From: Octopus vulgaris
Lineage: Eukaryota
Direction: 5' to 3'
NCBI GenBank assembly: GCA_951406725.2
Contig: OX597821.1
Location: 51,398,001 to 51,462,000 of the forward strand
DNA: 64,000 nt
The notes beneath the pieces were generated by a model. That model was given only the letters and a program-made list of their open reading frames with translations, ran no database searches and had not been told where the DNA came from. How positions within the stretch are numbered: position 1 is the first letter of the stretch; each line of letters starts with the position of its first letter. Below are positions 3,731 through 63,800 of this stretch, in pieces. The translations under genes and the position numbers were made by a program.

Positions 3731-4892
3731 ACAAAGTGAAGTTATAAGGTATATAGATATTTCCAAACAAACATGATTTTTATCGAACTTTTTGTTTAAT
3801 ATTTTCTCAGATGTTTCCTTGTAAACTGTTTTTAACATTTTCTTATTATTATCAAAGAATGTATATATGCATTTTAATACTTGTGTGACAACCACTACTT
3901 AACATAACAAAGCTTATACAAAGCTTTGCATTTTACTTTTGACAATCTTTTTCTAAAAAAGTGAAATCGGTCAAGTGAAAAAAACATCTTTAAAATTGCA
4001 TTTTCAAACCTTCTTTCATATATATATATATATATATATATAGGGACAATTCACGAAAAAAAAAAGCGAAGACAGGTGGTGTAGAAAACAAACAGATGTA
4101 TTAGTATAACGCTCGGGAATTGAAAAAGTCTTTTAGGTTTTGAGCCTACGCTCTTTCACAGACAGGAAGACAGAAAGAAACAAAGGGAGAAACAAGGAGA
4201 GAAAAAAATGTGTGTAGTGGCTACCAATCTATGTGTGTGTGTGTGTATATATGTACACACACACTCACATATATATATATGGTCTTGTTGGTGCTTAAGT
4301 GGTCTCAACGTAAGTGATTAACTACACATCTAGCTGAAGCAAGTGTAGTGTGTCATTGTCGTTTGGTGCGCGTACAATTCAATAGCTTCATTAGTTAAAC
4401 ATCAATGATTATAGTTTTACATGTCCTTTCTAAACACACAAATGCACGTGCGCCCGGTTAATTGTGATTTTTCCCGTTCATGCATAAATGTATGTGAGTG
4501 TCTTTAAAATTCCGAGGAATTATAACTTATGTTTATCTAGGGAAAAGATTAACAAAACGAACGAATATATTAATATTGGAACATATACATTTGAATAATC
4601 CATATAGACTCTGTTGCATGCTGTGATGCATATGTCTGTGTGTGTCTTATTACGTATGTACCAGTATATGTATACAGTGTATTTACACACATATACAGTA
4701 TATTTATACATAAGTGTATGTCTATATCTATAAGTATACAGGCACCACATACGCATATATATACATATATATACCTATCGATATCTATATGTGTATGTAT
4801 GAACGTAAGCACGAGGGCATACATATTTACACACATATATATCTATATAATGTGTATATCTATATCTATAAATATAAAGGCACCACCACATA

Positions 4893-4937: not shown

Positions 4938-5453
4938 CGACGTATATTTGCCATTTAAATATGGCAAACTCCTAAGGGTGGATGCTACTGTAGTTTGTAG
5001 CCCCAGGAGGACACCTCCTCCAGCTGGCTATAGTCACACTTTTTGTGCCCTATCAGTATTTGCAAAGGGAAGCCATCCTTCCCGTCTCCAACTTATGATA
5101 TACACGGAATCGAGTTTCTGGAGTTACGATACTGGAAAAAGTATATGTATTTGTGAAGGGAACCTACTTTTCCTCGACAACTGTGATTGTCACACGCCGA
5201 TGATGGGTTAATACCCAGAAACTCGAGTCCGTGTGTATCATAAATTGGAGACGGGAAGGATGGCTTCCCTTTGCAAATACTGATAGGGAACAGAAAGTGT
5301 GTCTATAGCCAGCTGGAGGTGTCCTTCTACAAACTATAGTAGCATCCCCCCTTAGGGTTTAGTCATATTTAAATGGCAAATATACGTCACGATGTGTTGC
5401 AGCTACTGTTTATAACTCGCTCTAAGATTTATTATTGATTATATTATTGATTA
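4937..5453 (+). mobile_element. Non-autonomous PLE-type fold-back element (IR 4937-5125 / 5210-5390 + tail) in (TA)n
   Basis: Diverged ~185-bp inverted arms, unmirrored tail 5391-5453, TA-rich flanks, HHR inside. Confidence 0.8.
5191..5235 (+). ncRNA. Minimal type I hammerhead ribozyme (U4->C variant)
   Basis: CACACG-CCGATGA-TGGGT taat ACCCA-GAAA-C tcga G-TC-CGTGTG: 6-bp stem I, 5-bp stem II, palindromic CTCGAG stem III, GUC cleavage triplet (after 5229). Confidence 0.85.
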
Positions 5454-5479
5454 TATATAGAAGGAGCAATTCAACAGAA

Positions 5480-5748
5480 CAGCTTGTTCGTGAAATTAAC
5501 GTGCAAGTGGCTGAGCACAACACAGACACGTGAACCCTTAACGTAGTCCTCGGGGAGATGCAGCATGACAGAGAGTGTAACAAGGCCAGCCCTTTGAAAT
5601 ACTGGTACTACTCATTTTTGCCAGGTGAGTGGACTGGAGCAACATGAAATTAAGTGTCTTGATGAAGGACACAACGCGTCGCCCGGATTTGAGTACACGA
5701 CCTTACAATCGTGAGCTGAATGCCCTATCCACCAAGCCACGCGCCTTC
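5480..5748 (-). mobile_element. SINE family C-related copy
   Basis: Shares the head and core with 59480-59605 but has a different 3' body. Confidence 0.75.
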
Positions 5749-6460: not shown

Positions 6461-7569
6461 CACACATATATATATATTGTTATATTTCGGAATGGTCATA
6501 TTGCCAGTTTAGCCAATAAAAACACACGCACTATATATTTGGTGTTATTTTGCTTCAGTGATATTTATTTTTTACATTAATCTTAATCTTATTTCGGCCA
6601 AAGTTCTTTCGTCACACTCCTGTGACCGCATCAGTGGTCCTTTGTTTTCTTCTCACTTACTTGTGTCTCTCCTTACTAACCGTCAGCCATTTTATATTTC
6701 TATTGTATGTCTTCATTTGCGCATGTTTATATCTCTATGTGCGTCTATGTTTATTTAGTGTGTGTGTGGGGGGGATGCCTGTAATATTTGTATCTTCTGG
6801 TTATATACATTCTTGTAATTTGTATTTTGTTTTTGTTGTTGTTGCTTTTGTTCTAATTTTGTTCATGTGTTTACATCGACCCATTATTATCATTACATAT
6901 GCTTGTATGTATGTATAACAACAATATTAGTAATAATAATAATAAATCTAATGGAAAAAAAAAAAAAAAAAAGGAATATACATATACATATATATATATA
7001 CATACACATACATATACATATATATATATATACATATACACACACATATATACACATATACATATACATATATATAGATATTCATTTCTATTTCTTTAAT
7101 TACCTGTGTATTTATTATGTTTGCAGGATCCACTATTGTCATATGTTGTGGTGTGCGCTATTGCTCCATTCTAGTTTTCTATTCAGGCTAGGTTTATTTT
7201 CTATTATATGTGTAGCTTCTGTAATTTGTCTAATTGTTGCATCTGTTCTATGTGTGGACAATATCTTAATCTCTATGTTATTGATTGATCCCCCGTGTTC
7301 TTGTTCGGCGTGTTGGTACAGAATCGATGAGCTTTTACCTTCCTTGAGTTGTCTCCAATGTTCATTCACCCGCTCACCAATGCTTCTTGCAGTTTCCCCT
7401 ACGTATGTTACTGTCTTGTTACTGCATCGTCCCTCTATACATCTTATACTATAGACCACATTTCTGGCTTTACAGTTCGTTTGTGGGCTAAATCTACATA
7501 CAGTGCAATAGTTATCCGTACAGAGAGTTCTACTAAAAGGATAGCTTCTACCAATTATAGATCTGATAG

Positions 7570-8701
7570 CTATGATATCAATATAGTAGTAAAGGCACCC
7601 CCACAAGAGAGTACTGTTGATATAGTAATAGAAACTAATACTATGGAGAGCATCCAGCAAATAGCTAACTCCATCCACCAGAGTATTAAGGTCACAATAG
7701 ACTACCCCACTAAACACCCCAACCATAGACTACCAGTACTAGACACTGAACTCTGGCTAGAAATTGTGAAAAATAAAACCCAAATCCTTCATTCATACTA
7801 TGCAAAACCTATGGCCTCAAAATACCTGATCCACCGGAACTCAGCCATTGCGGGCAATGCCAAATTCAATATTTTGATGGCAGACCTCGTCAGAATAATG
7901 AGAAATGTGTCACGCATGTGCGAGCCTACAGAATTAAAAAGACACATACAGTACTTCATTCACCGCATGCAGTTCTCAGGTTACAGCCATAAAGAAAGGA
8001 TCAGAGTATACAAAGGAGCCATGAAGAAATTTGATAATATATTATGTAATGATAGGAATGGGATTTGCCCACTCTATAGGAACAAGTCATGGAACACTAT
8101 AGAAAGGACAAAAAAGAAAATAGGGAAGGCCAACTCTTGGTATGATAGCCATAAATACCAGAGTGTCATGTTCGTTGACACCACCCCTGGAGGTGAACTA
8201 GCGTACCGCTTTAGAAGGACCCTAGATAAACTTAAACTAAGAATTAAGGTTGTTGAAAAGCCAGGCAACCCTATCAGATCTATAATTGGTAGAAGCTATC
8301 CTTTTAGTAGAACTCTCTGTACGGATAACTATTGCACTGTATGTAGATTTAGCCCACAAACGAACTGTAAAGCCAGAAATGTGGTCTATAGTATAAGATG
8401 TATAGAGGGACGATGCAGTAACAAGACAGTAACATACGTAGGGGAAACTGCAAGAAGCATTGGTGAGCGGGTGAATGAACATTGGAGACAACTCAAGGAA
8501 GGTAAAAGCTCATCGATTCTGTACCAACACGCCGAACAAGAACACGGGGGATCAATCAATAACATAGAGATTAAGATATTGTCCACACATAGAACAGATG
8601 CAACAATTAGACAAATTACAGAAGCTACACATATAATAGAAAATAAACCTAGCCTGAATAGAAAACTAGAATGGAGCAATAGCGCACACCACAACATATG
8701 A
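7570..8701 (+). CDS. PLE polyprotein C-terminal part: end of RT, thumb, Cys-rich linker and GIY-YIG endonuclease (open frame, 5'-truncated)
   Basis: Genuine part of ORF 7349..8701: DINIVV (residues just after the RT YxDD motif), LPVLD..., YYAKPMASKYLIHRNSA, CTDNYCTVC linker, VVYSIRC...C...YVGETARSIGERVNEH...H...H (GIY-YIG with CCHH), E...I...KPSLN. 7349-7569 is antisense sequence from the inverted arm. Confidence 0.88.
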
Positions 8702-9199
8702 CAATAGTGGATCCTGCAAACATAATAAATACACAGGTAATTAAAGAAATAGAAATGAATATCTATATATATGTATATGTATATGTGTATATATGTGTGT
8801 GTATATGTATATATATATATATATGTATATGTATGTGTATGTATATATATATGTATATGTATATTCCTTTTTTTTTTTTTTTTTTCCATTAGATTTATTA
8901 TTATTATTACTAATATTGTTGTTATACATACATACAAGCATATGTAATGATAATAATGGGTCGATGTAAACACATGAACAAAATTAGAACAAAAGCAACA
9001 ACAACAAAAACAAAATACAAATTACAAGAATGTATATAACCAGAAGATACAAATATTACAGGCATCCCCCCCACACACACACTAAATAAACATAGACGCA
9101 CATAGAGATATAAACATGCGCAAATGAAGACATACAATAGAAATATAAAATGGCTGACGGTTAGTAAGGAGAGACACAAGTAAGTGAGAAGAAAACAAA

Positions 9200-9245
9200 G
9201 GACCACTGATGCGGTCACAGGAGTGTGACGAAAGAACTTTGGCCG
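9200..9245 (+). ncRNA. Hammerhead-ribozyme-like motif in the PLE pseudo-LTR (mirror copy 6596-6640, minus strand)
   Basis: gacca-CTGATGCG-GTCACA ggag TGTGAC-GAAA-g aa c-TT-tggcc: perfect 6-bp stem II, minimal stem III, imperfect stem I. The core is non-canonical (C at position 9 plus an extra G). Confidence 0.6.
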
Positions 9246-9514
9246 AAATAAGATTAAGATTAATGTAAAAAATAAATATCACTGAAGCAAAATAACACCA
9301 AATATATAGTGCGTGTGTTTTTATTGGCTAAACTGGCAATATGACCATTCCGAAATATAACAATATCTGTTTCAACACACGACTTCACATAAAAAATCTT
9401 GCACAACAAATATTTAAACGTATATATATATATATATATATATATACATACACCTATCTATATCTATATGTGTATGTGTGCGTTCATGTTTATGTGTGTA
9501 TGTGTGCGTGTGTG

Positions 9515-10872: not shown

Positions 10873-11091
10873 GTGTGTGTGTGTGTGTGTGCATGTGTGT
10901 ATGTGTGTGTGTGTATACATGCATAGTTACATGCACACACATGGTGCTGGTTTTCAGATAGAACTATCCATGTTTCCCGAGCCCTAACATTGCTAGGAGT
11001 GTTCGTTAAATGATATTTATCTCTCACTAGATGGAGTTGCTCCTACCTTAATGGAACAGTAAACTCTGTTTGCATATATATATATATATAT

Positions 11092-11308
11092 TTCTTTACT
11101 ACCCACAAGGGGCTAAACACAGAGGGGACAAACAAGGACGAACAAAGGGATTAAGTCGATTACATCGACCCCAGTGCGTAACTGGTACTTAATTTATCGA
11201 CCCCGAAAGGATGAAAGGCAAAGTCGACCTCGGCGGAATTTGAACTCGGAACGTAACGACAGACGAAATACGGCTACGAATTTCGCCCGGCGTGCTAACG
11301 TTTCTACC
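11092..11308 (-). mobile_element. SINE family A (tRNA-derived head, Meta/MESC-like central domain)
   Basis: GAGTTCAAATTCC B-box and GGTCGACTTTGCCTTTCATCCTTTCGGGGTCGATAAATTAAGTACC core. Other copies at ~19716-19850, 19928-20125, 21875-21990, 28355-28560, 39755-39890, 46037-46220, 55291-55506, 60270-60460, 60960-61147 and 61162-61360. Confidence 0.85.
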
Positions 11309-13170
11309 AAGCATGCGTGTATGTTCATATAAATGTTGGGTTTTTTTCTCGTTGTTTGTGTACTTTTTCACTTTGCTTTATTGTATTCATCGTTGTAACT
11401 TTATAGGAACATAAAAATTAACTAATGTTAGATAGACAACTCAATGAAGGGAACTATATATTCACGTTATGAAAAAGTCTCGTATTATTTCTTTGATTTA
11501 TATTCCAGACATTTAGGAACCTATTTGGAGCTTCATACGATTTTCTAGCTAATTTTTTACTAAGTCGTTTTTTATCGTTGAAATGATAAAACAGACCCAA
11601 TTCTAGACACATAAAGTTCGACGTGTATCTTTAAGTTAATCATATAAATTGTTTCGCTTGTTGTAGTTCTTCCTCTTATAAATTAGTTTTGTTTATTTTG
11701 TGAACTGCAATTCAATACACTTGTTTTTTAGTTTTCCTCTTGTAGACGTATGCTAAATGTAGCTCCAATAAAATGGCAACAATGAACTTCTCAGTTTCTG
11801 GACTTGTTATGTTTGTCATTATCTCTGTGTTCTTCATGAATTTCAAGCATCACGTACGACGCATCGATTTTTTTTACACTAAATCTTCAAACATGAGAAG
11901 GAAAAAAAATGGAAGACAATGCGATCTTAAATTTCTGTTTTCTTGGTGTCCATTATCAGGCAGTTGTGAGAAAGTAACTTCAAGTTATCCTAAAGCACAC
12001 AGTAAACATTTAGAAAAGTGTAACAGCAGTTTCGAATTGTATTTTCAATGTATATTTTAATACTGATGCAATACACAGTATCAGTTGAATGTAGCGAAAG
12101 AGTGTATCAGAGTGACTTGTAGCGAAAGGCGACAGTTGATAGAGAAACTATTACTTCTTTCATTCCTCTTTCATTCTTCGAGTTTGAATGGATCAGACAG
12201 ATGGAACTGATCCTTAAACAATTCATCGGAAGAGAACGTCATCTTGGGAGGGGAAGTATAAGTTGATCGGATTTATATTCATTTAAATGAGTGAACATTA
12301 ACAGGTTTCAATCGCCAGACTAAGAACTAATGTATACTACACACAATTAAGAGGATCACCAACAACTGATATATCTTATTTTTAGATAACATGTTTCTTA
12401 TAAGTTTGTCAGAACAGAAGAGGGTAAAACGTCATTAGACTCTAGAGTTATTATATTCAGAGCGATTATTTATCATGCTGATAAAACAGGTGTTAAAACA
12501 TGAAGAGAAGAGTAGTATTCTTACAATGAAGTATTAAATCCATTACATATTCTATCAACAGAACCTTTGGCATCTCTCCTTTAAAATGGCAGCTGAACAT
12601 TTCTCATAAATGTCAAAATGTTGTCTCAAAATATATTATTTATGAACTTATAAACTAGAATATCCAAACGCCTTATTTCATTGTTCTGTGGAGGAAATTT
12701 CATTGTAGAAACTAAAGTTCATCTTGTTTTTAGAATTCTTATAATTGTATTTATTAATAATAGACAGTTTATTCTTCCATGTCGGTAAACATTTCTGGAT
12801 TATTATCAAAATTCTTATTTTATTTTTAACTTATGTTTTCAAAGATAAAATTCATTGCATTTCCTGGAATATGTTGCTGCATATTTTCTATCGATCCTGA
12901 TCATATGTATAACATTCATATGGATATATCTATATGAATAATATATGTTTATATACATGTGTGAGAATGAGTGTGTAGGTGCATGACTTAGTGATTAGGG
13001 TGTTCCACTCATGATTGCAAGATTATAATTTCGAATACTGGACCGGGAAAGGGGTTGTGTCGCTGAGCTTAGCCCTCCATTTCACGTTGGTCCACTACAA
13101 CCAGTCGGCAAAAATGAATTCAATTCTCTCTCTCACTATATATATATAGTGAGAGAGAGAGAGGCAGACA

Positions 13171-13690
<520 letters not shown>

Positions 13691-14984
13691 CACAAGTTTG
13701 TCTAAGGGCTTAGGAACTTCGGTTTGCAGCCACATATTTTGGGATCGAATTAGAAGACCCGAAACATTTGAGATGCCGAAATTCTAAAGTTAAATGTTTT
13801 AACTGTTGCTAGCAAAGTCCACAGACTTTATAATTTGAGAAATGTATGAAATTACTGTATTATAAATATATGTACGAATATATACATGCATGTGTACAAG
13901 AGAGAAAAAGTGAAGTTTATAGTGAGAGAAAGATGGACAGAGAGGAAAAAAGGAGTAAACTGATAGGAAAAAATAGAAAAAAATGAAGAATAATGGAAGA
14001 TAAGCACGGTTGCTATAGAAAAATGAAAGGAAGAGAGGAAGAAAAGGAGAGACGCCTAGTTGGATAGAGAGAGAACATAAGTGGGGTGGAGAAAGTAATT
14101 CGTTGAAGCATGACTAGAAGTAAATGTAGTATGAGAAGCACTTTGGTATACTGTTGATTCTCTCGTGTAAGCAGCAAGAACATTCGTTGTTGATCTTTGT
14201 TTTACTTTCCAAATTATTTGATTTTTATATCTTAGTATATTAATTTTTTTTTATTTAGAAAAAGATTACGGATATTATGTTCAATCATGTTTTACTTAGA
14301 ATAACTCATTTGTGTTGCTTCACTGTAAATATACCTGTTAGAAATCGTCAAGAGTTATAACATTCTTTCAATCGACTGTAACTATCACATTTCAGATTTT
14401 TACGAGTCACAATTTTTAGAACTTGTGATTATGTAAGTTTTATAAAGCTAACTACAGTAATAAATTATGATAATGCGATATGGTAATGTTATATTTGATT
14501 GATTTTTTGTTTTACAAGTTTAATGCATGATATCATTCCGTATATAATGCTCTGTCTGATTTTATCGAGCAGTGCCAACTCCGTCTTTCATGTTGGAATT
14601 ATTGGTGCAATAAGTATTAAAACTAGATGCAGATACGATCAAGTCTTCTATAATTTGACAAAAATACACACTGCAAATTTCTTACCATAGTTTTACTAAT
14701 GAGAACATATAAACTGACGCAGATAAAAATCACTTAATATGGTTTGATACAAACGGAATTATTTAATGGTTCTCAATCAGAATTGATTCATTCTCATGAG
14801 TGCGGACAGATTATTATCTACTATTGGTTTCACTTCTCATTCTTTGACAATAATGAAAAAGATAACGCCCGTAATATAATATAGCTATGTGCCTACTAAC
14901 ACACGGCTTCGGTATGAAATAGTGCCATGGACATTTAGACGTGTATGACGGGAAATCAAATATATATTGCAGCGTGCTTCACAA

Positions 14985-16041
14985 AAGCGTGGCTCTGGAT
15001 TCGATACACTGCACTGCAAAAAAAAATTCGTATATCGTATTCGAGTCTAAAGTCGAAGCGACTCAAAACATACATTCAGTTTATGAGAAAGAATGCTTGA
15101 ATGAAAGAACTTGCAGAAGTTGGTTTGCAAAATCCAGAAGTGGAGATTTCAGCCTTGAAGATGAAGATCGAACAGGAGTCCAGTTGAGTTTGATGATAAG
15201 CTCCTTGAGGTATTACTTGAAGAAAATTATGTATTATCAGTTGAATAATGCTTAGTTCAAACCATACAACTCTTCATCGTCCTTTTCAACAACTTGGAAA
15301 GATTCCTAAAGTTTGAAAATGGGTGCCTCATGAATTGTCCCAAAGCAACCTCAAATCCGCAGTTGACATCTGCTCTTCACTCCGTTCTCGCGAACTCATT
15401 TCACCCTTTTTGGATAGACTTTGGACTGGTGATGAAAAATGGATCTTTTATCGAATGTTAAACGTCGTTAACAGTGGCTTGGTAAAAAGGAAAAAAGCTC
15501 AAACACAACCGAGAAGGGAACTTCATAGGGAAAAGGTTCTTCTCTCTATCTGGTGGGATTGCAAAGGAGTAATTCTCTTTGAATTGTTAACACCTAATGC
15601 AACAATCAATGCTCAAGTCAACTGTCAGCAATTAGAGCTTTTGAACCAAGCTTTGAAGAAGAAAAGACCCGCTTTAGTGAATCGAAATGAAGTGACGATT
15701 CATCAGGACAATGCGCAACCCAACACTGCAAAGATCACATCAAGAAAATCGAAGAGCTTGGTTGGGAAAAATTCACCATCCACCTTATTTATCTGACCTT
15801 GCTCCTTCAGACTACTATTTACTTCGTAGTTTACAGATCATTTGGGGGACAACTTTCGCCAGGAGGTGGTCGAAACTGACATTTCAGAATTCTTCGATTT
15901 GAAACCAAAAGAATTTTACATTGATGTGACTAAAAAGCGTGTAAATAGATGGAAAGAAGTAGATGATTAACTTTCAATTAAATATAACATTTGATCACTT
16001 GTTTTCTTTATTCAAAATACGGACAGAACATACGGGATGAC

Positions 16042-16044
<3 letters not shown>
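14985..16044 (+). mobile_element. Mariner (Tc1/mariner DD34D) transposon relic
   Basis: Frameshifted transposase: WFAKSRSGDFSLEDEDR, WVPHEL, TGDEKWIFY, KVLLSIWWDCKGVI.FELL, HQDNA, HPPYLSDLAPSDYYL. The right TIR ...GGACAGAACATACGGGATGACCTGA-TA runs into (TA)n. Left TIR not recognised. Confidence 0.92.
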
Positions 16045-16084
<40 letters not shown>

Positions 16085-16087
<3 letters not shown>

Positions 16088-16288
16088 GGTCCCGGGTTAA
16101 TTCGGGGTTAACCACAGTAAGTAAGGTACTCAATACATAGCAGAGTAAAATTAATTTATTATATAGAAGGAGCTTCTACAGGACTAGTACTGTTTCATTC
16201 AAGAGAAATCTTCAGGAAGCTCCTGAAGCTTCCTGAAGATTTCTCTTGAATGAAACAGTACTAGTCCTGTAGAAGCTCCTTCTATATA

Positions 16289-16294
<6 letters not shown>
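16085..16294. mobile_element. Minimal HHR fold-back element (perfect IR 16154-16221 / 16227-16294, tail 16085-16153) in (TA)n
   Basis: 68-bp perfect inverted repeat with a 5-nt spacer. The tail lies outside the IR, and there is (TA)n on both sides. Confidence 0.8.
16227..16277 (+). ncRNA. Type I hammerhead ribozyme with intact core (identical copy 16171-16221 on minus strand)
   Basis: AGCTTC-CTGAAGA-tTTC tctt GAAt-GAA-ACAG tactagtc CTGT-A-GAAGCT: 6-bp stem I, 4-bp stem III, GUA triplet (cleavage after 16271). Stem II is short, with a T.T closing mismatch. Confidence 0.8.
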
Positions 16295-16336
<42 letters not shown>

Positions 16337-22489: not shown

Positions 22490-23820
22490 ACTGAAACAAG
22501 TCTTAAGGAAAAAGGACCTCACGTGGTGTAATTAAATGAAAAGTAAAAAGAAACAATGAAAATACGTATTGGTATGATGGACATGGTTTTTTTGAAAAAA
22601 AAACAAGTATAAATACAAACGAGTTGAAGTTATATTAAGATGTATAAAAACCATTTAGAAAGTCATACCGGTTTCGCTAGAAGTGGTCACTAATTGTGAA
22701 TCGACACCGGTTGTCAAGCAGTGTTGGGTATAAAAAAGCATACACCTAAATGAAAAAATTAGATGCAAGGGAAGTAAACAGTTCTAAAAGGGATGTAGAT
22801 ACGATCACTAAAATTTGAAGTAGTATTTGAGATATATGAGGATTAGTGATATTAGTGATATTAGTAAGGTTTGTAGTGTCCTGTATTGTGTTGTGTGTTC
22901 ATAATAAGTTGTTGTTTATTTATCAATTAAAGTTACCTCTTTGTTACACTGAGGCATCCTGGAGTTTTGATAAAAAGTGGAAGTTCAGCTTGAGGTTCGT
23001 AGCACTTCTATGGATGTGTTCACAGACCTGCACCTATCTATATGGTGCGAAACGGATTTGTTCCCTGTGGACTATTGTTCTTCCTCTGCGGGACATTCGT
23101 GTTTGGCCTATATAATGATTCCCACAACCTAAGCTGGTAATAACATAGATTAGTTTTTCAGAGGCACTAGCGAAATTTGACTTTATTTTAAATATTTTAT
23201 CGTGTTTAAAGTGAAATTCTGACCCCCCCCCAAAAAGGGTAGGTGCATGTGTCAGTTAGGACGCCTGCATTTCTCCATTTTTGGTTCCGTTGTCAGGGTA
23301 TATAATTTTGTGCTGGTTAATATTCTTTTCAATGATTTCGGTTGTATTTTGCTTTTGATCAATTGGTGTGAGCCCAATATTTTGTTCATTGTGTTATCTC
23401 TACTTAGAATAGGTAGAGATTGGATGATGATGGTGAATGCCTCACTGTTTCTGGGGTTGTGTGTGGAAATGCAGAGACATACTTTAAATCTGTTGTGACA
23501 TTTTGGTTGACTTACCTTAATGTCTGTGTCTATTTTCTTTGCTTGTTTGATCCCATTATCCACTAATGATTTGGAGTAATGTCTCATGATTAGTGTTGAT
23601 TTAAGTATACCAAGTCTTAGTTCACGAGCATTGGTATCTGAGATTATGGTACAGATTCTTTTCGCTAGATTATAGGGTATATTAATTTTTATGTATTTGG
23701 GGTGGCATGAGTTAAATAACAGGTATTGTTTTGAATCTCTAGGTTTATAAAAGATGTTCGGTTCAATGTGATTATTGACTATTTTAAATAGGATGTCGAG
23801 AAAAGGTAATTGTTTATTGC
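22490..23820 (-). pseudogene. Decayed Penelope-like element (RT thumb + GIY-YIG)
   Basis: Minus-strand frames give FYKPRDSKQYLLFNSCHPKYIKINIPYNLAKRICTIISD, THNPRN, KSKIQPKSLKRILT and LIYVITSLGCGNHYIGQT..R...HREQI, with stops and frameshifts. The 3' half of an HHR (GAAACCGGTA) lies near 22670. Confidence 0.85.
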
Positions 23821-23970: not shown

Positions 23971-24385
23971 TTGATTAAAAAACAGAAAAGACAAGAAAAA
24001 CAACAACGTAAGGACGTGCCACGTGCACAGTATTAACAAGACGCTCCGAGAAGAAAAGAGTGGTTGTTTAACGCTTCGAGCATAGCTCTTCTTCTGAAAC
24101 AAGAGGCACAGGAAAGTCCAAAAGAAAGGAAGAAGAGCTATGGTCGAAACGTAGAACAATCAGTCTTTGCTTCTCTGAGCGTATTATTAGTACATTGACG
24201 TGCTACGTCCTTGCGTTGTTTTTTCATGTCTTTTCCCCCCCGTTTTTTAATCAACTATTTACTGCACGCTCACATGAACCGCCATCCCGCCGACTTGCTT
24301 TGGATTACCTAATTCGTGGTTTCTTTCTTTTATCGGATTACATCAACTGATTCATTCGGAGTACACCATTTCTGCACCTTTATTT
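23971..24385 (+). mobile_element. Older HHR fold-back element (IR 23971-24254 + tail), with HHR remnants at 24064-24102 (-) and 24128-24159 (+)
   Basis: Diverged inverted arms. Minus strand: TTGTTT-CAGAAGAA-GAGC tat GCTC-GAAGCGTT-AAACAA. Plus strand: GAAGAA-GAGC tat GGTC-GAAACGTA-gaacaa. Confidence 0.7.
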
Positions 24386-26469: not shown

Positions 26470-27400
26470 TGCTTGCATTTTTGGAAAAGTAGTGTGGTGA
26501 ATCTAAAAAGTCTAGGATCTAAAATTCTAGGGTCCCAAATTCTTGGATCTCAAAGGTATGTGCGATCTTTTAGTTACACTTAAGTTGCATTTATTAGATC
26601 CATTTACATATGGCATGGCTTTCTCTACGATCCTCCACTTGATTGTATATGGTATTCTGTTGGTCTTCAAACATAATACCTGGCTAACCAGCTTACTGAC
26701 GATGTGCCGGAAAGAAGACGGGTGGTTTGCATAACGTCGGTTTGTTGTGACTTCTGCCTCATAGACGGCAGAGTTTATCATACACATGTGGTTAAGTGGG
26801 CAAGCTTCAGTGTCTCCACATTTACATTTGGAGATGGCTTTTGTTGAGCTCACAAGCTTTAATATTCTTCATATTGGGGAGACTACTTAACTGATTTCGG
26901 TACCCGCTGGGTTTTAAAATCTACAAATGAGTTTATTACTGAAATTAAGTGATATTTTTAGAGAAATGAAAGCTTCTCTCTTTCCTAAGGATTCTAATCT
27001 ATTCTCAGTTTTGCTACGTTTAGAGAGAAATTTGTCCTCATCATTAATATCATTGTTTGCCTTCTTATATTTAGTAGAAATGGTGTCATTCAACAACTTA
27101 TATTGATCATCAGTGACTTCATCTAGGTCATTGGTCTTAACAGCAAATATGAACTTTCAAAGCTTCAAATATTGGATTTTAGTTTGGCGTTATGACATTC
27201 AATATAAAATGTTCTATTCTACGCATCAGCATTAGCTTCCAGTAGGAGCTTATTTCTTTTGACAACGAAATTCCTGATACTTCTCACATGTTTTGATAAA
27301 AGTTTCATATCTAGATGTTTTGTTTTAAAGCTAAATTATTTTCACATTTAGAAGTATTTCTGTTTTAGTTGGGAAAATTTGAAATTTCCAGTATTTTGGC
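26470..27400 (-). pseudogene. Decayed, internally deleted PLE of a different clade (possibly Hydra-type)
   Basis: N-terminal-type EAFISLK...F.NK..CR joined almost directly to CKC....CPL...C....VY.A.V...RYANH..SF...IKW.I......Y.NG..KCNL. The RT core is missing. Confidence 0.75.
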
Positions 27401-31531: not shown

Positions 31532-31820
31532 TACAAAATTAAGAGGAATGACCACTAAAGTGGACACCCTATATGCTAAACATAGACGTCAAATTTCCAT
31601 TACCACGAGAATGCGTTATCAAGAAATGTATTTCTTGAGAACCCATTCTTCGGGATAATGGCGATTTGACGTCTATATTTAGCATATAGGGTGTCCACTT
31701 TAGTGGTCATACGTCTTAATTTTGTATGTAACGCAATTTTTAATCTTCGGATTTTAAATATGCTAAGCCACTGGTTTTAATTTATTAACATCAATTTCTA
31801 CCCTTATTATTTAAAGTTAT
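31532..31820 (+). mobile_element. Fold-back element: ~96-bp-arm palindrome 31532-31726 + tail to ~31820
   Basis: Outer arms near-perfect, inner arms diverged. TTGANAA...ccatt/aatgg...GAAA HHR-like remnants in both arms. The tail resembles positions 1-70. Confidence 0.72.
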
Positions 31821-41659: not shown

Positions 41660-41956
41660 TATTACTGTTCTCCTTTTTTTGAATCTACTTTCCTTAAAGG
41701 TGATTTTTAAAGATGTTAATATTTAATATAAGAATAAGGCGGCGAACTGTCAGAATTATTAGCACGCCGAGAAAACTGCTTAGCCGCCATTCGTTCGTCC
41801 GTCTTTATGTTCTGATTTTCAAATTCCGCCGAGGCCGAATTTGCTTTTCATCCTTTCGGGGTCGATAAATTATGTACCAGTGAAACACTGGGCCAATGTA
41901 ATCAACTATACCCTCCCCTAAAATTTCAGTCCTTTTGCCATAATAGAAAAGATTAC

Positions 41957-42020
<64 letters not shown>

Positions 42021-42300
42021 TTCGTTCTTTTACATTCACTTTCCGTAATGGTGGTTTTTAAAGATGTTAATATTTAATATAAGAATAGAGCAGCGAGCTG
42101 GCGGAATCGTTAGCACGCCTGGCTAAATGCTTAGCCGTATTTCGTCCATCTTTACGTTCTGATTTTCATATTCCTCCGAGGTTCACTTCGCCATTCATCA
42201 TTTTGAGGTTGGTAAAATAAGTACCAACTCAAGAGCTGGGGTCGATGTAATCGACTTATCCCCTCCCCGTAATTGCTGGCCTTGTCCCAAAATTTGAAAC
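41660..42300 (+). repeat. Old tandem duplication (~350 bp) of flank + family A SINE, separated by (ATT)n
   Basis: TTTTTAAAGATGTTAATATTTAATATAAGAATA precedes both SINE copies (41738-41950, 42088-42300). Confidence 0.75.
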
Positions 42301-43679
42301 CTATATCTCATGTAGGGATTTAATATTATTTAATAACTTGAGGTGTATAGGTCACATTTTCTAATTAGAAAAAGAAATCAGGATGGTGAATGGTAAATAC
42401 TAAAAAAAGTTTTAAAAACACTGTTTTAAATCATTTTTTATAGCTTAACAAATGCGGATATTTTTGTTGTATGTTAAAGACGTTTTCTTTTGTGTGTGTG
42501 CCTTAAGTTATAAATTTTCATAGCATTGTTTCATTATTTTAAGGATTTTGATTATGACATGGATTTTGTTTCAATTGGAACTAATTGGACGCTCCATTTT
42601 AGGCATATACAAGAACAAAATCAATTTCCGGACACTGATTATAAGAGTTCCGGATTCTCTCGTAATCTGTACTAATTACGAACAAAAACCTCAAATTTCC
42701 GTGGTCTCTAGACTAGTTTACATATTAGTACTTTTCACAGTGCAGTATTAATAATCTTACATAATTTGTACAAATGTACATGTACCAGAATATCATTTAC
42801 TCGTTTAACGTTACCAGCTATTAGTTAGTTATGTGAAAGAGGTTTCTCAAGATCGCTTGACTTGCTGTCAATCGCTGCAAATTCTACCCAGAATCGCACC
42901 CTGCTGCCTTAAACGAGAAATACTAGATGTTGTGTTGCTAGATACGTTATACCAGAATGGTGACACCGGTACTACTTTCGGACGTAATACTATTCTATTA
43001 CGGAAGACTTTTGGCTAAATTACAACAATAATACATAAGTACCATAACAGTCTTACTCTGTATATTCTGTCTGCCAACTTTTACTAACAAGTTATTGATG
43101 AGCTGGAGGTTCAGGTACAAGACACCTATCCCAATATTTTGATCATTGTGTTTGAATCCGAAATCATGTGAATAGTTTATGGGCTTCCTAACCACAAAGC
43201 AAATCAGGAACCTTTTACTGTTTATTTATCAAATGCACGAGACATCGAAACAAATTAACATCAAATAAATATGCATAAATATATTATTATTTGTATTATT
43301 TTTCGTGAAATAAATTGCCTAATTGTATTCCATTTTATTACTGTCCAATTTTAACGAAACCGAAACAGACTGCAATTTGATAAAGCTTTTAACATGAAAA
43401 TATATCTTCGTGCATTTAATTCTGCGCGCCTGTGTATGTGTGTTAGTATGTGTACATCTGTATGTATGCGTGTTTAATGCAAACATACATCGATGTACAA
43501 TGTAATATTATGTCAGTTCCTTTCTAATTGTAAATCGTAAATATCATTTTTAAAACCACAAAATTTTTTTCTATAAAAGAACATTTTTAAGCATGAAAAA
43601 TCTTTCTTATCCACCTCTTTTTATCTCTACACACACGCAGACACACACATCCACACGTACACGCACACACATGCACTGA

Positions 43680-44795: not shown

Positions 44796-44816
44796 ATATA
44801 TATATGTATCTATTAG

Positions 44817-45228
44817 GGCGGCTAGCTGACAGAAACGTTAGCACACCGGGTGAAATGCGTAACCGTATTTCGTCTGCCGTTACGTTCTGAGTTCAAATTC
44901 CGCCGAGATCGACTTTGCTTTTCATCCTTTCGAGGTCGATTAAGTAAGTACCAGTTACGCACTGTAGTCGATATAATCGACTTAATCCGTTTGTCTGTCC
45001 TTGTTTTTCCCCTTTGTGTGTAGCCCCTTGTGGGTAGAAAAGAAACAGGTATTTCGTCTGCCATTACATTCTGAGTTCAAATTCTGGCGCGGTCGGCTTT
45101 GCCTTTCATCCTTTCGAGGTCGATTAAATAAATACCAATTACGCACTGAGATCGATGTAATCGCCTTTATCCCTTTGTCTGTCCTTGTTTGTCCCCTCTA
45201 TGTTAGCCCTCTGTGGGCAGTAAAGAAA
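44817..45228 (+). mobile_element. SINE family A with tandemly duplicated body
   Basis: The segment GTATTTCGTCTGCC...CCCCTTGTGGG..AAAGAAA occurs twice (44865-45048, 45049-45228). Confidence 0.85.
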
Positions 45229-45240
45229 TATATCTATATA

Positions 45241-45367
<127 letters not shown>

Positions 45368-50289: not shown

Positions 50290-51361
<1,072 letters not shown>

Positions 51362-51904
51362 CACAATTACATTTAATGAAATGAAAGCACGTTTATGAAA
51401 ATAAATATGTCACTCATGTAAATTGATACATACAAGAAATTGCTCCACTTGTTATATACACACACGCATACACACACACATATACATATATTTATAATTA
51501 TATCTGTACGTGTGTATATAAATGGTGGAATTCTCTCTGGCATATATCAATTTACATGAGTGACATAAATGTGTTCTCATTGAATTAAATATAATTATAT
51601 ATGTCATATTTAGATATAACGTATTATAGTTTGTGGTAATTGTGAGTATCAACTGACTTAATCAAACTGTATTTGATTAAACCTAGTAATCCTCGTTACA
51701 CGAAGTGTCAGTTATAAAGGACATTCATATCAAATCGCTCTGTATTTTTCTTTTTGCCAATATACTAATATCCTAAATCCGAATTATGATACCTCTTAAC
51801 GGGTTTATATCCTGTATTGAAACATATTGAAAGCATGCACTTTCAAACAGACACCGACTAGAAAACTTATTTTTAGTGTATGAAGGCTGTTTAAATTTAT
51901 CTTT

Positions 51905-54461: not shown

Positions 54462-55789
54462 TTATTCTTCCCATATTTTTCTTTTTAGCAGAAAAGATTT
54501 TAAAAAATACGTTTGTTATAAGTTCTGATCTATGTTTGCTAAAAATCCATTTATTACACATTTTTGTTTGTATTGTTTCTAATGTTTAAAAGAGACGCCA
54601 TTGTAAAAGTTTCCCATGTATCAAGTCTCATCGCCAACACTTATCATTTTACTCGCCTTTTCAAATGAAACCATTGAAATCAATATAGAATATTATACAC
54701 AATATTGATTTCAGCTTCACCAAACATAAGGACGGGGAAGCATATTTGACCAACTATTCATTGAAAGGTACGTTTTCACCGGTGGCATTTACACAGTGAA
54801 TATAGAACGACAAAATTAATGAAGTAACATATGTTATCCATTAATCTAAATATTTTACTGCACATATTTGAGTCCAGAAAACTACATGTCTCACTGTGCA
54901 GAGTTTAATCCATTCTACTGCATGCTTTACTATAGTAGTTTAGTCAATTATAATACGCTGCTGTTTACTGACTGGGTAAAACACATTACGTGGTTGTTTT
55001 GTTTTTATATAACATTGCGTCATTTTACTGTCTGATTTCAAATGATGAATTTCAAATTTGTTTTCCATTCTTCTTGGGGCAAATAATTCAGTGCCTGTCA
55101 CTTAATGAGTAAGAATTTTAATGAGCTTATATCGTTCCTCAAACGTGAGGCTGTAAGATACGCTCAAGATCTGAACTTTTTGTCGGATTCTTGCAGGGAG
55201 TGTATCGACATAGTACTCGACAGATACATATTTTAATCTAAGCAGAAAATATTAGGAAGTGAGTCTACCCAATGCTTATTTTGATTAATATTGGTTTCAA
55301 ATTTTAGCACAAGGCCAGCAATTTCGGGGAATGGGGTAAGTCGATTAAATAGACACCGGTGTTTAATTGGCACTTATTTTATCGACGTTGAAAGGATGAA
55401 AAGCAATGTCGATTCCGATAGAATTTTTATTCAGAGCATAAGGACGGACAAAATGCTGCTAAGCATTTTGCCCTGAGTGCTAGTGATTCTGCTTGCTGTC
55501 CGCCTTCAACTCAGATTAACATTACAACATGTTGAGACACACTGAGGAAAATTTAATTATATACCTACTAATATAATCAGACAAATTATACATGCTGTCT
55601 ATAGATTTAAATTGTTGTTAAAATATGGGGAACTTTTATAATGCCTGAAAATGTGATGTACTGGCTGCAAAAGAGATTGCACCTTTTAAAACTTATCAAT
55701 GAGAAATTAAAACCTGCATGGTCAATTCCAAACTTTCACATGTCTAAATTACCACACGGCAAAATGCATCAACACTGTTACAATATGCT

Positions 55790-61494: not shown

Positions 61495-63800
61495 GTTAGG
61501 TAGGTTAGAATCTCCCCATTCTCCACGCTTCAACAAATTTATTATGTAGCGGGAAGCATCACCCTATCAGCCATCGTCTTCCTTCCCATGTGCAACTGCA
61601 AAACGTCGGTGGAGGTTTGGTTGAAGAAGAACAACCACTTTCACTGCAACCATCGTCTCTGCACAAATCCTACATATGCACAGCCGACGGTATTTCTGTG
61701 ATTGTCAGGTTTATATTGAAACGGTATCTCGCGGCGAGCTGGCAGAAACGTTAGCACGTCGGACGAATTGCGAAGCCGTATTTCGTCTGCCGTTACGTTC
61801 TGAGTTCAAATTCCGCCGAGGTCGACTTTTCCTTTCATCCTTTCGGGGTCGATTAATTAAGTACCAGTTACGCACTGTCTGTCCTTGTTTGTCCCCTCTG
61901 TGTTTAGCCCCTTGTGGGTAATAAAGAAATAGGTATCTCGCTAGTTATGACTACCAGACTAGGAAATTCTTAAAACCACCCATAGTCCTCTGGAACAAAC
62001 CAGCTAGTTGATTCCCGCCGACAGCTGTTTCCTCAAGAAGTCCGTTCATCTTGCGCACGAGTAGTCCTCTGTAGAAAGCTAACGTAGAGTATCTACCGAT
62101 TGAATTGCCCAAACAGAGAGAGTTTTTTGAGACCCTGGTAACATTTCAGATATTAACTAGCCTTACTTGGTCTTCTCTTGGCACAAAACCAGATTTTCGT
62201 TAGTGACGAGCTGTAGACCGAAGTATCTGACAAAAGTGATAGCATCTCAGTCAAAGGATCTCCATGTCGTAGTTTTTGTGTATATCTATACATAAACAGC
62301 TATTCTGTTTCTCTATCTCAATACAAAGGTTTTTGACTGCAGATAAGCTGGGTGGGGCGATATACAATTCTATACATTTTCATTGCTTCTCTTCCGTGAT
62401 GACGGGCTCAACCATTGCACCTTTTATTGTTATTTGATTCATTGAGGGATAGCTGTTGCTGATATTGTTCTCAGATGTTTGACTCTAAGAATCTGTGTTT
62501 GTATTGTACTCAGATGTTTGACTCTAATAATCTGGTTCTTGTCTAGAAGAGAGTAGTGTTGACACCTTTTGACCTTTCATTTTGGATTTGCAACAGTTGT
62601 TTTTGCTCATAATCTTTAAAGTTGCATTTGATCTTGTTATTGTTGTTGTGTTTGTTGCAATTGATAATGATGTGGGTGTAGTACTGAAATCAAGGAGACT
62701 TTCACTTTTTCTTTTTTTTGCTAAAGGACAAAGTTATCTGGTGGTCTGTACTATCCTAAGCGTAGCACCTCGAGCGTCCAGTCATCTACCACAAATCACA
62801 AGTTTCAAATCTTTGCCACGTTTTGTCGAGTGGTCAATGTTTGCACCGTATTTTTTTAACCATTTATTATCGGGAGTGGATTTCTTGCTGATAATTTTCC
62901 CGTGTTCTTTTAGGTTCATACTAAAATATTATTTCAAATATGGTGCCGCATATGTGAAGCCTGTCTAAGTGTATGCTTTTCCATAGACGTCGACGGTAGT
63001 AAATATTCCTCAGGGAGGAACCATATATCTCCACTGAGATGTCTCCACATATATCTCCACTGAGATATGTGTGCTAACCATATATCTCCACTGAGATATA
63101 TGGTTAGCATATCTCTCTCACTTGCTTCCCTAACGTGTCATAGAAAGTCCTACACCTGCCGCGTGTATTTTCCTGCTTGTGCTGGAGTGATAGGTTTGGC
63201 CATTCCGGTAACAATCATATAAAACTAAATTTTAGAGTTCTTTGTTTAATATTTAATTTTTCTTCTGATGACATCCGGAAGTCCTCTTAGCCAATGTTTT
63301 GTTTTTCAAGTTTAAATCCTGCTTACATATTAAAGAGCGTTCTTTGAGCGTGTTAGTTAATGCTGCGGTGTAGTCTCGGTCGTTGTGTTTGTGGGCATGT
63401 CACAATGACGATGGTAACAAAAGTATTGTATTTGTTGGAGCCGCTGTTGTTGATAAAGGGAATTTTATCAACTGCCTCGATTCGATGTCGGTATTGGTGG
63501 TGGTGGCTTTGGTAGAGTTGGTTTTGAATGTGCTGATGTTTCCAAAAGTTAGTTATTGTTAAAAATTATCTTTTCTACTTTTTACGCTAGGTTTTCCTTG
63601 TCGTTAATAACTGTTTTCCGTCTATGCTCTGAAGATAGCTGTTTTCGTTGTAGGAATTGTTGTTGATGCTGTTATTAGCGGAGGAGGCTAATTGAGGTGT
63701 TGTTTTTTAGTATGTTTGTTGCAGTCCAACAGGCTTTTGCTCATTTGGCTTCCCTCGCTGCTCCAATACTCAAGAATAAATATTAGATCATTCTCACACA
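61495..63800 (-). pseudogene. Decayed L1/Tx1-like LINE (ORF1 zinc knuckle + ORF2 C-terminal remnant, large internal deletion)
   Basis: Minus strand 62726-62770 reads CYA*DSTDHQITL-CP (CX2CX4HX4C with a stop and a frameshift); ...STLAFYRGLL...LAGLFQRTMG lies near 61980-62100. Assignment by eye. Confidence 0.45.
61731..61938 (+). mobile_element. SINE family A, young copy
   Basis: GCGGCGAGCTGGCAGAAACGTTAGCACG head; GGTATCTCG present on both sides. Confidence 0.85.

Follow-up and report, generated by a model that had tools for sequence, protein, structure and literature searches.

Insertions of Penelope-like elements (PLEs) follow a published architecture in which an inverted, 5'-truncated copy lies adjacent to the 5' end, a 30- to 40-bp tail is present on one copy, and microsatellites are favored as targets; how the inverted ends are built has been put forward as a question for in vitro study (PMC8557442). 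In Adineta vaga, the elements Pen2a, Pen2, and Pen3a have head-to-head junctions with palindromes, which were read as the product of self-priming on an antisense template. There, an inverted end repeat (pLTR) overlaps the direct one by 15 bp and is 37 bp shorter, and an 18-bp palindrome lies at the 5' end of a pLTR (PMC3846280). The pLTRs contain minimal hammerheads with low activity in vitro, and pairs of hammerheads on opposite strands, about 100 to 700 bp apart, have been reported in Schistosoma (PMC4209133). For an anole PLE, uncleaved RNA was the main insertion substrate in vitro and cleavage was protein assisted (PMC11167929); cleavage by hammerhead dimers has been reviewed (PMC6765202). 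Furthermore, it has been proposed that non-LTR retrozymes, which are noncoding, carry a type I hammerhead, and stand head-to-tail in tandem, derive from PLE pLTRs (bioRxiv 10.64898/2026.07.22.740005). Octopus vulgaris itself has recently active Penelope families, for which a rate calibration is available (PMC13282606).

We analyzed a window of O. vulgaris DNA (the whole stretch, 64 kb) that contains an insert of 210 bp, 16085 to 16294, bounded by two (TA)n tracts. This insert is probably a severely 5'-truncated, hammerhead-bearing PLE end repeat whose mirror arm was probably made when the new DNA strand folded back and copied itself. Its parts are as follows.

16045 to 16084, no strand: left (TA)n tract, the likely insertion target
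16085 to 16224, minus: main copy, 140 bp, probably a truncated PLE end repeat (pLTR), with the hammerhead at its 5' end
16085 to 16153, minus: 3' extension, 69 nt, in the main copy only, with two small predicted hairpins
16168 to 16224, minus: type I hammerhead motif; stem I spans 9 bp, C3 lies at 16215, and cleavage is predicted after 16177
16221 to 16228, plus: junction, an 8-nt direct duplicate of 16231 to 16238, of putative fold-back origin
16227 to 16294, plus: inverted short copy, 68 bp, a mirror image ending 69 nt earlier than the main copy
16227 to 16277, plus: type I hammerhead motif; stem I spans 6 bp, C3 lies at 16233, and cleavage is predicted after 16271
16255 to 16270, plus: helix III with a near-palindromic loop, predicted self-dimer at -15.2 kcal/mol versus monomer at -1.4 kcal/mol
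16293 to 16328, no strand: right (TA)n tract

The arrangement resembles that of EN+ PLE insertions (PMC3846280, PMC8557442) in that a direct and an inverted copy stand head-to-head, the inverted one is shorter at its 3' end, the junction has a short palindrome and an overlap, and the target is AT rich or (TA)n, here with TA tracts on both sides. Unlike those insertions, the insert has no RT and GIY-YIG gene, its arms are only 140 and 68 bp, and no target-site duplication is readable because the insert lies inside a TA tract, a difficulty noted for PLEs too (PMC8557442). The one-sided extension is 69 nt versus 30 to 40 nt for the published PLE tail (PMC8557442), a comparison in which a single copy cannot separate a tail from random truncation. 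A PLE end repeat joined head-to-head to its inverted copy is a published structure, and the hairpin locus likely adds another example of it. The insert is also noncoding with a type I hammerhead, as non-LTR retrozymes are. We rejected that identity because retrozyme units are tandem with same-sense ribozymes (bioRxiv 10.64898/2026.07.22.740005), while the only two cores in the window are opposed.

Geometry of the hairpin and its junction

In the assembled sequence, the 68 bp from 16154 to 16221 match the reverse complement of 16227 to 16294 exactly, and a 5-nt loop separates the two. The next pair beyond the arms is a mismatch, and different sequence resumes on either side. The initial annotation had described a perfect hairpin with 68-bp arms, which we confirmed. 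The insert is more than the hairpin and is asymmetric, as 69 extra bases (16085 to 16153) reach the left TA tract; read in its own sense, the main copy runs from 16224 to 16085, with the hammerhead first and 83 further bases after it. The palindrome is the longest of six perfect, nonsimple inverted repeats with arms of at least 15 bp in the 64-kb window, the runner-up having arms of 19 bp. Its folding z score was -22.75, with none of 200 shuffles equally stable, and the predicted energy of the hairpin RNA was -117 kcal/mol. An Rfam scan of the whole window returned no match at the gathering score. The top Rfam scores belonged to microRNA models, but they were driven by the hairpin and all fell below threshold, and a microRNA identity was rejected.

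The perfect identity of the arms had been read as the mark of a recent event, which overstates what it can tell. Zero differences in 68 pairs only caps arm divergence at less than 4.3% (95% bound), corresponding to about 6 My if the octopus calibration of PMC13282606 applies, and polishing or gene conversion could also have erased differences between the arms. At the center of the hairpin, the CCTGA spacer had been described as a copy of the start of the core. It is indeed duplicated, as part of a longer, 8-nt duplicate in which 16221 to 16228 equals 16231 to 16238. We suggest that this duplicate represents a short first fold-back that preceded the long one.

Hammerhead motifs in the two arms

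Each arm contains CUGAAGA, a stem II of 3 bp with U on both flanks, GAAA, a stem III of 4 bp whose loop is 8 nt long, and GUA; the conserved core, NUH triplet, and three helices of a type I hammerhead are present in each. A strict descriptor matched one type I core per arm and none elsewhere in the window. In 150 simulated 64-kb windows, the same descriptor gave one match, and none with a stem III of at least 4 bp. A looser descriptor that allowed a U3-A8 core gave one further match in the window, at 3939 on the plus strand, which is A/T rich and probably due to chance.

The two opposed cores, and the order of an antisense and then a sense hammerhead on either strand, were correctly described at the outset. 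The cores lie 18 nt apart here, compared with about 100 to 700 in published opposite-strand pairs (PMC4209133). Both arms had been said to begin at the first base of stem I. This holds for the plus arm, with its stem I of 6 bp, but the stem I of the minus copy is 9 bp and starts at 16224, and therefore three of the five "spacer" bases are part of it. The 9-bp length is a post hoc reading of a single copy, with a chance of about 1 in 64.

The core letters are intact as first reported, with the qualification that the G10.1-C11.1 pair of canonical hammerheads is absent and U·U stands in its place. Because U·U is also found in four PLE comparison loci (L002, L006, L012, and L082), it is likely a clade trait rather than decay. 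Like PLE type I hammerheads (PMC4209133, PMC6765202), the motifs have a conserved core, an extra base after A9, and no evident loop 1, and, like those with a palindromic helix III, they have a palindromic loop 3 suited to dimers. They differ from PLE hammerheads (PMC4209133) in the U·U pair, in the 3-bp stem II, and in a helix III of 4 bp with an 8-nt loop. The Rfam hammerhead models matched neither the hairpin nor any other part of the window; however, this result is uninformative because all six comparison loci with PLE hammerheads used as a reference were likewise missed.

In folding predictions, about 2.5% of the isolated arm would adopt the active fold. The predicted cost of that fold is 76 to 78 kcal/mol within the hairpin versus about 2.3 kcal/mol for the lone arm, in agreement with the earlier proposal that the fold-back sequesters the ribozyme. 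Both head-to-head motifs are therefore predicted to be unable to cut.

Neighbors in the window and comparison loci

Three neighboring features bear on the origin of the insert.

14923 to 16044, plus: decayed mariner transposase remnant with right end, a neighbor outside the insert
22980 to 23815, minus: frameshifted PLE RT/GIY-YIG gene remnant, with RT and GIY-YIG domains present in its relatives
23971 to 24254, no strand: older head-to-head pair from a different family, whose hammerhead-like motifs are decayed; the pair aligns with 103 matches and 18 mismatches

The mariner remnant spans three frames with 38 to 52% identity to the relative used and ends before the left TA tract; no matching left end was found in the window. 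Fold-back MITEs of the Tc1/mariner type are short and palindromic, with TA flanks and inverted repeats at both outer ends. The insert is similarly short, palindromic, and TA flanked, with a mariner nearby, but its inverted repeat is internal, 69 unpaired extra bases stand at its left end, and it has no likeness to the mariner end. A fold-back MITE was rejected on these grounds, and a mariner origin of the insert was rejected given the same lack of likeness and the missing left end in the window. The insert had been placed in a TA tract at a mariner end. The TA flanks are real, but the window contains 51 (TA)n tracts of this kind, so the adjacency needs no special cause; the decayed mariner is likely an older neighbor whose link to the insert is incidental. 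Elsewhere in the window are imperfect palindromes at 4939 to 5388 (450 bp, 79%, beside a TA tract, MITE-like), 31532 to 31726 (195 bp, 89%, with TA-rich flanks, fold-back MITE-like), and 51340 to 51618 (280 bp, 68%). A SINE-like dispersed repeat of 150 to 250 bp has many copies that are 70 to 90% alike, at 11076 to 11309, 41717 to 42312, 44814 to 45243, 55284 to 55519, 61731 to 61940, and others.

The older head-to-head pair lies 8 kb from the hairpin and upstream of the PLE gene remnant, and it turns at the 5' edge of the core. Named relatives of the two mobile-element remnants (PLE gene and mariner) include ones from Octopus bimaculoides, bivalves, and Limulus. Another PLE forms a partial tandem at 6474 to 9366, in which 6474 to 7569 and 8271 to 9366 are 99.6% identical (a self-match in reverse-pair form). 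Its 456-codon open frame matches a PLE profile (probability 95), and no hammerhead descriptor match was found there. A short open frame at 26527 to 26868 on the minus strand, which we take to resemble the end of a PLE gene, had no Pfam match. A 41-nt match at 5440 to 5480 (E value of 0.011), which lacks a hammerhead core, was not considered further.

The query for collecting comparison loci was an alignment built from 20 of 31 relatives of the PLE gene remnant; the best 80 of 405 metagenome loci and 6 genome loci gave 86. The descriptor used for them required a 4-bp stem II, a cutoff under which the 3-bp stem II of the hairpin falls, and many contigs end before the 3' end. Within these bounds, there were 23 matches in 21 of the 86 loci, 21 of them sense to the gene and 2 antisense. 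The antisense matches, in L023 and L069, each belong to an inverted copy situated upstream of the gene match; L023 is a head-to-head pair with cores 181 nt apart, and in L069 the inverted copy abuts a truncated gene. Among the 18 loci at least 37% identical to the query, 5 had a match, and stem II was flanked by U·U in 4 of those 5; the 16 matched loci at a greater distance all lacked this flank. Helix III, with 4 bp and an 8-nt loop in the hairpin, is longer than in the four look-alikes, where it measures 6 nt in all. By resemblance only, the motif shape is tied to PLEs carrying the Neptune/Nematis-type cysteine linker, which is seen in the consensus of the query alignment and defined in PMC8557442. 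An alignment of 18 comparison motifs misplaced the forms with a long helix III.

Other features of the comparison loci are recorded here. At 1650 to 1705 of L014, a near-perfect 56-bp palindrome without a hammerhead lies just upstream of the PLE gene match, a fold-back at another truncation point. At 64 to 327 of L085, a 264-bp imperfect palindrome (77%) lies immediately upstream of a PLE gene match that is truncated. L081 to L086 are PLE genes of likely animal origin in six contigs of bacterial genome assemblies, probably through host contamination.

Origin of the palindrome

For an insert of PLE origin, we propose that an element-encoded endonuclease and RT, supplied in trans, nicked the (TA)n tract and made a target-primed copy of an element RNA, which would have been uncleaved, given that the core is complete on the 5' side of the cut site. 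The first-strand DNA (plus strand, 16085 to 16224) would have stopped at the 5' edge of stem I. Its last bases may then have formed a 4-bp hairpin with a 3-nt loop, allowing a 4-nt extension, followed by a slip back on a 2-nt microhomology and the copying of 66 nt of the same strand before the extended end joined the TA tract. Because one arm templates the other, the arms would be identical at birth, and the two-step fold-back would account for the arm identity, for the 8-nt duplicate, and for the mirror copy having a shorter stem I. The two-step mechanism is drawn from one copy, in which the geometry, the stems, the duplicate, and the TA flanks are directly seen. Read-through RNA would form a 68-bp duplex in which neither motif folds, and because the antisense arm is made first on either strand, it would pair while being made. 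The locus is thus predicted to be catalytically silent and is likely an inert by-product.

Alternatively, the palindrome itself could be a nonautonomous mobile unit, copied whole by PLE proteins and present with a fixed junction at many places, which we consider improbable. It is known that pLTRs suffice for mobilization in trans (PMC3846280), and part of the stretch occurs in 22 of the 24 public runs listed, from 10 studies with three organism labels and a wastewater sample; one run may be the window's own source, and none of the listed runs containing it was RNA. However, no run contained all 15 words sampled. The highest share was 0.73, in line with a main copy lacking the junction, for which 0.77 of the distinct words are expected, while the arms alone would give 0.27 (0.42 by position). 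Shares above the arms-only expectation suggest that the 69-nt extension is present too, and, for the 15 words sampled, they fit a shared unit with a locus-specific junction. In addition, there is a single copy in the 64-kb window, and a hairpin RNA of such stability would presumably be a poor template.

Counting against the PLE reading, no family copy joined to a PLE gene came to light: exact-pattern scans for the family gave no matches in genome, viral, or metagenome contigs, and BLAST against the 86 PLE loci gave matches of 18 to 19 nt only. A 42-residue chance reading frame that crosses the junction, a weak query, retrieved nothing, and a PLE protein scan of viral contigs gave 246 pattern matches with none confirmed. 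Our search of the literature on octopus hammerhead ribozymes and Penelope turned up no account of the motif of this family, which may already be among those aligned in the supplements of PMC4209133.

Somewhat less probable still is that an ordinary single copy was duplicated later by a fold-back during host replication or repair, unrelated to insertion. The junction is microhomology-like and the surroundings are AT rich and repeat rich, as such an event would have it, but in both head-to-head pairs of the window the turn falls at the hammerhead's 5' edge, and the arrangement is found again in the PLE loci L023 and L069 and in PMC3846280. An assembly or library artefact, whether a fold-back chimera or a collapsed repeat, is a slighter prospect again. 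Complex PLE insertions do trouble assemblies (PMC8557442), and this one combines perfect arm identity with microsatellites on both flanks; yet the mirror ends after 68 bp with different sequence beyond on each side, the junction holds a structured 8-nt duplicate, and a similarly designed pair, old and diverged, is found at a distance of 8 kb. We give least credence to a hairpin-RNA gene under selection, acting through small RNAs to silence the PLE family, or to a switch that conceals the ribozyme. The perfect 68-bp duplex predicted on either strand would suit such a role, but the insertion mechanism would account for the arm identity without selection, no compensatory changes or conservation are shown, and no host gene was identified around the hairpin.

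The locus itself is likely of little weight, as a further stub in a common class of retrotransposons. In annotation, stubs of this type resemble microRNA hairpins, and the Rfam hammerhead models miss them. A more tentative idea, which we regard as unlikely but worth stating, is that, in this PLE family, second-strand synthesis is primed by the hammerhead's stem I and the start of its core, with snap-back on the built-in 4-bp hairpin making the inverted pLTR; the 8-nt duplicate would then be a false start of this reaction, captured at the junction. If this were true, head-to-head PLE palindromes would be explained from a sense, uncleaved template, the motif would have a role as DNA, and the antisense-template self-priming proposed in PMC3846280 would not be needed. 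Because very short, undecayed insertions leave the junction readable, collecting them across a genome could help to tell first-strand DNA fold-back from self-priming on an antisense RNA.
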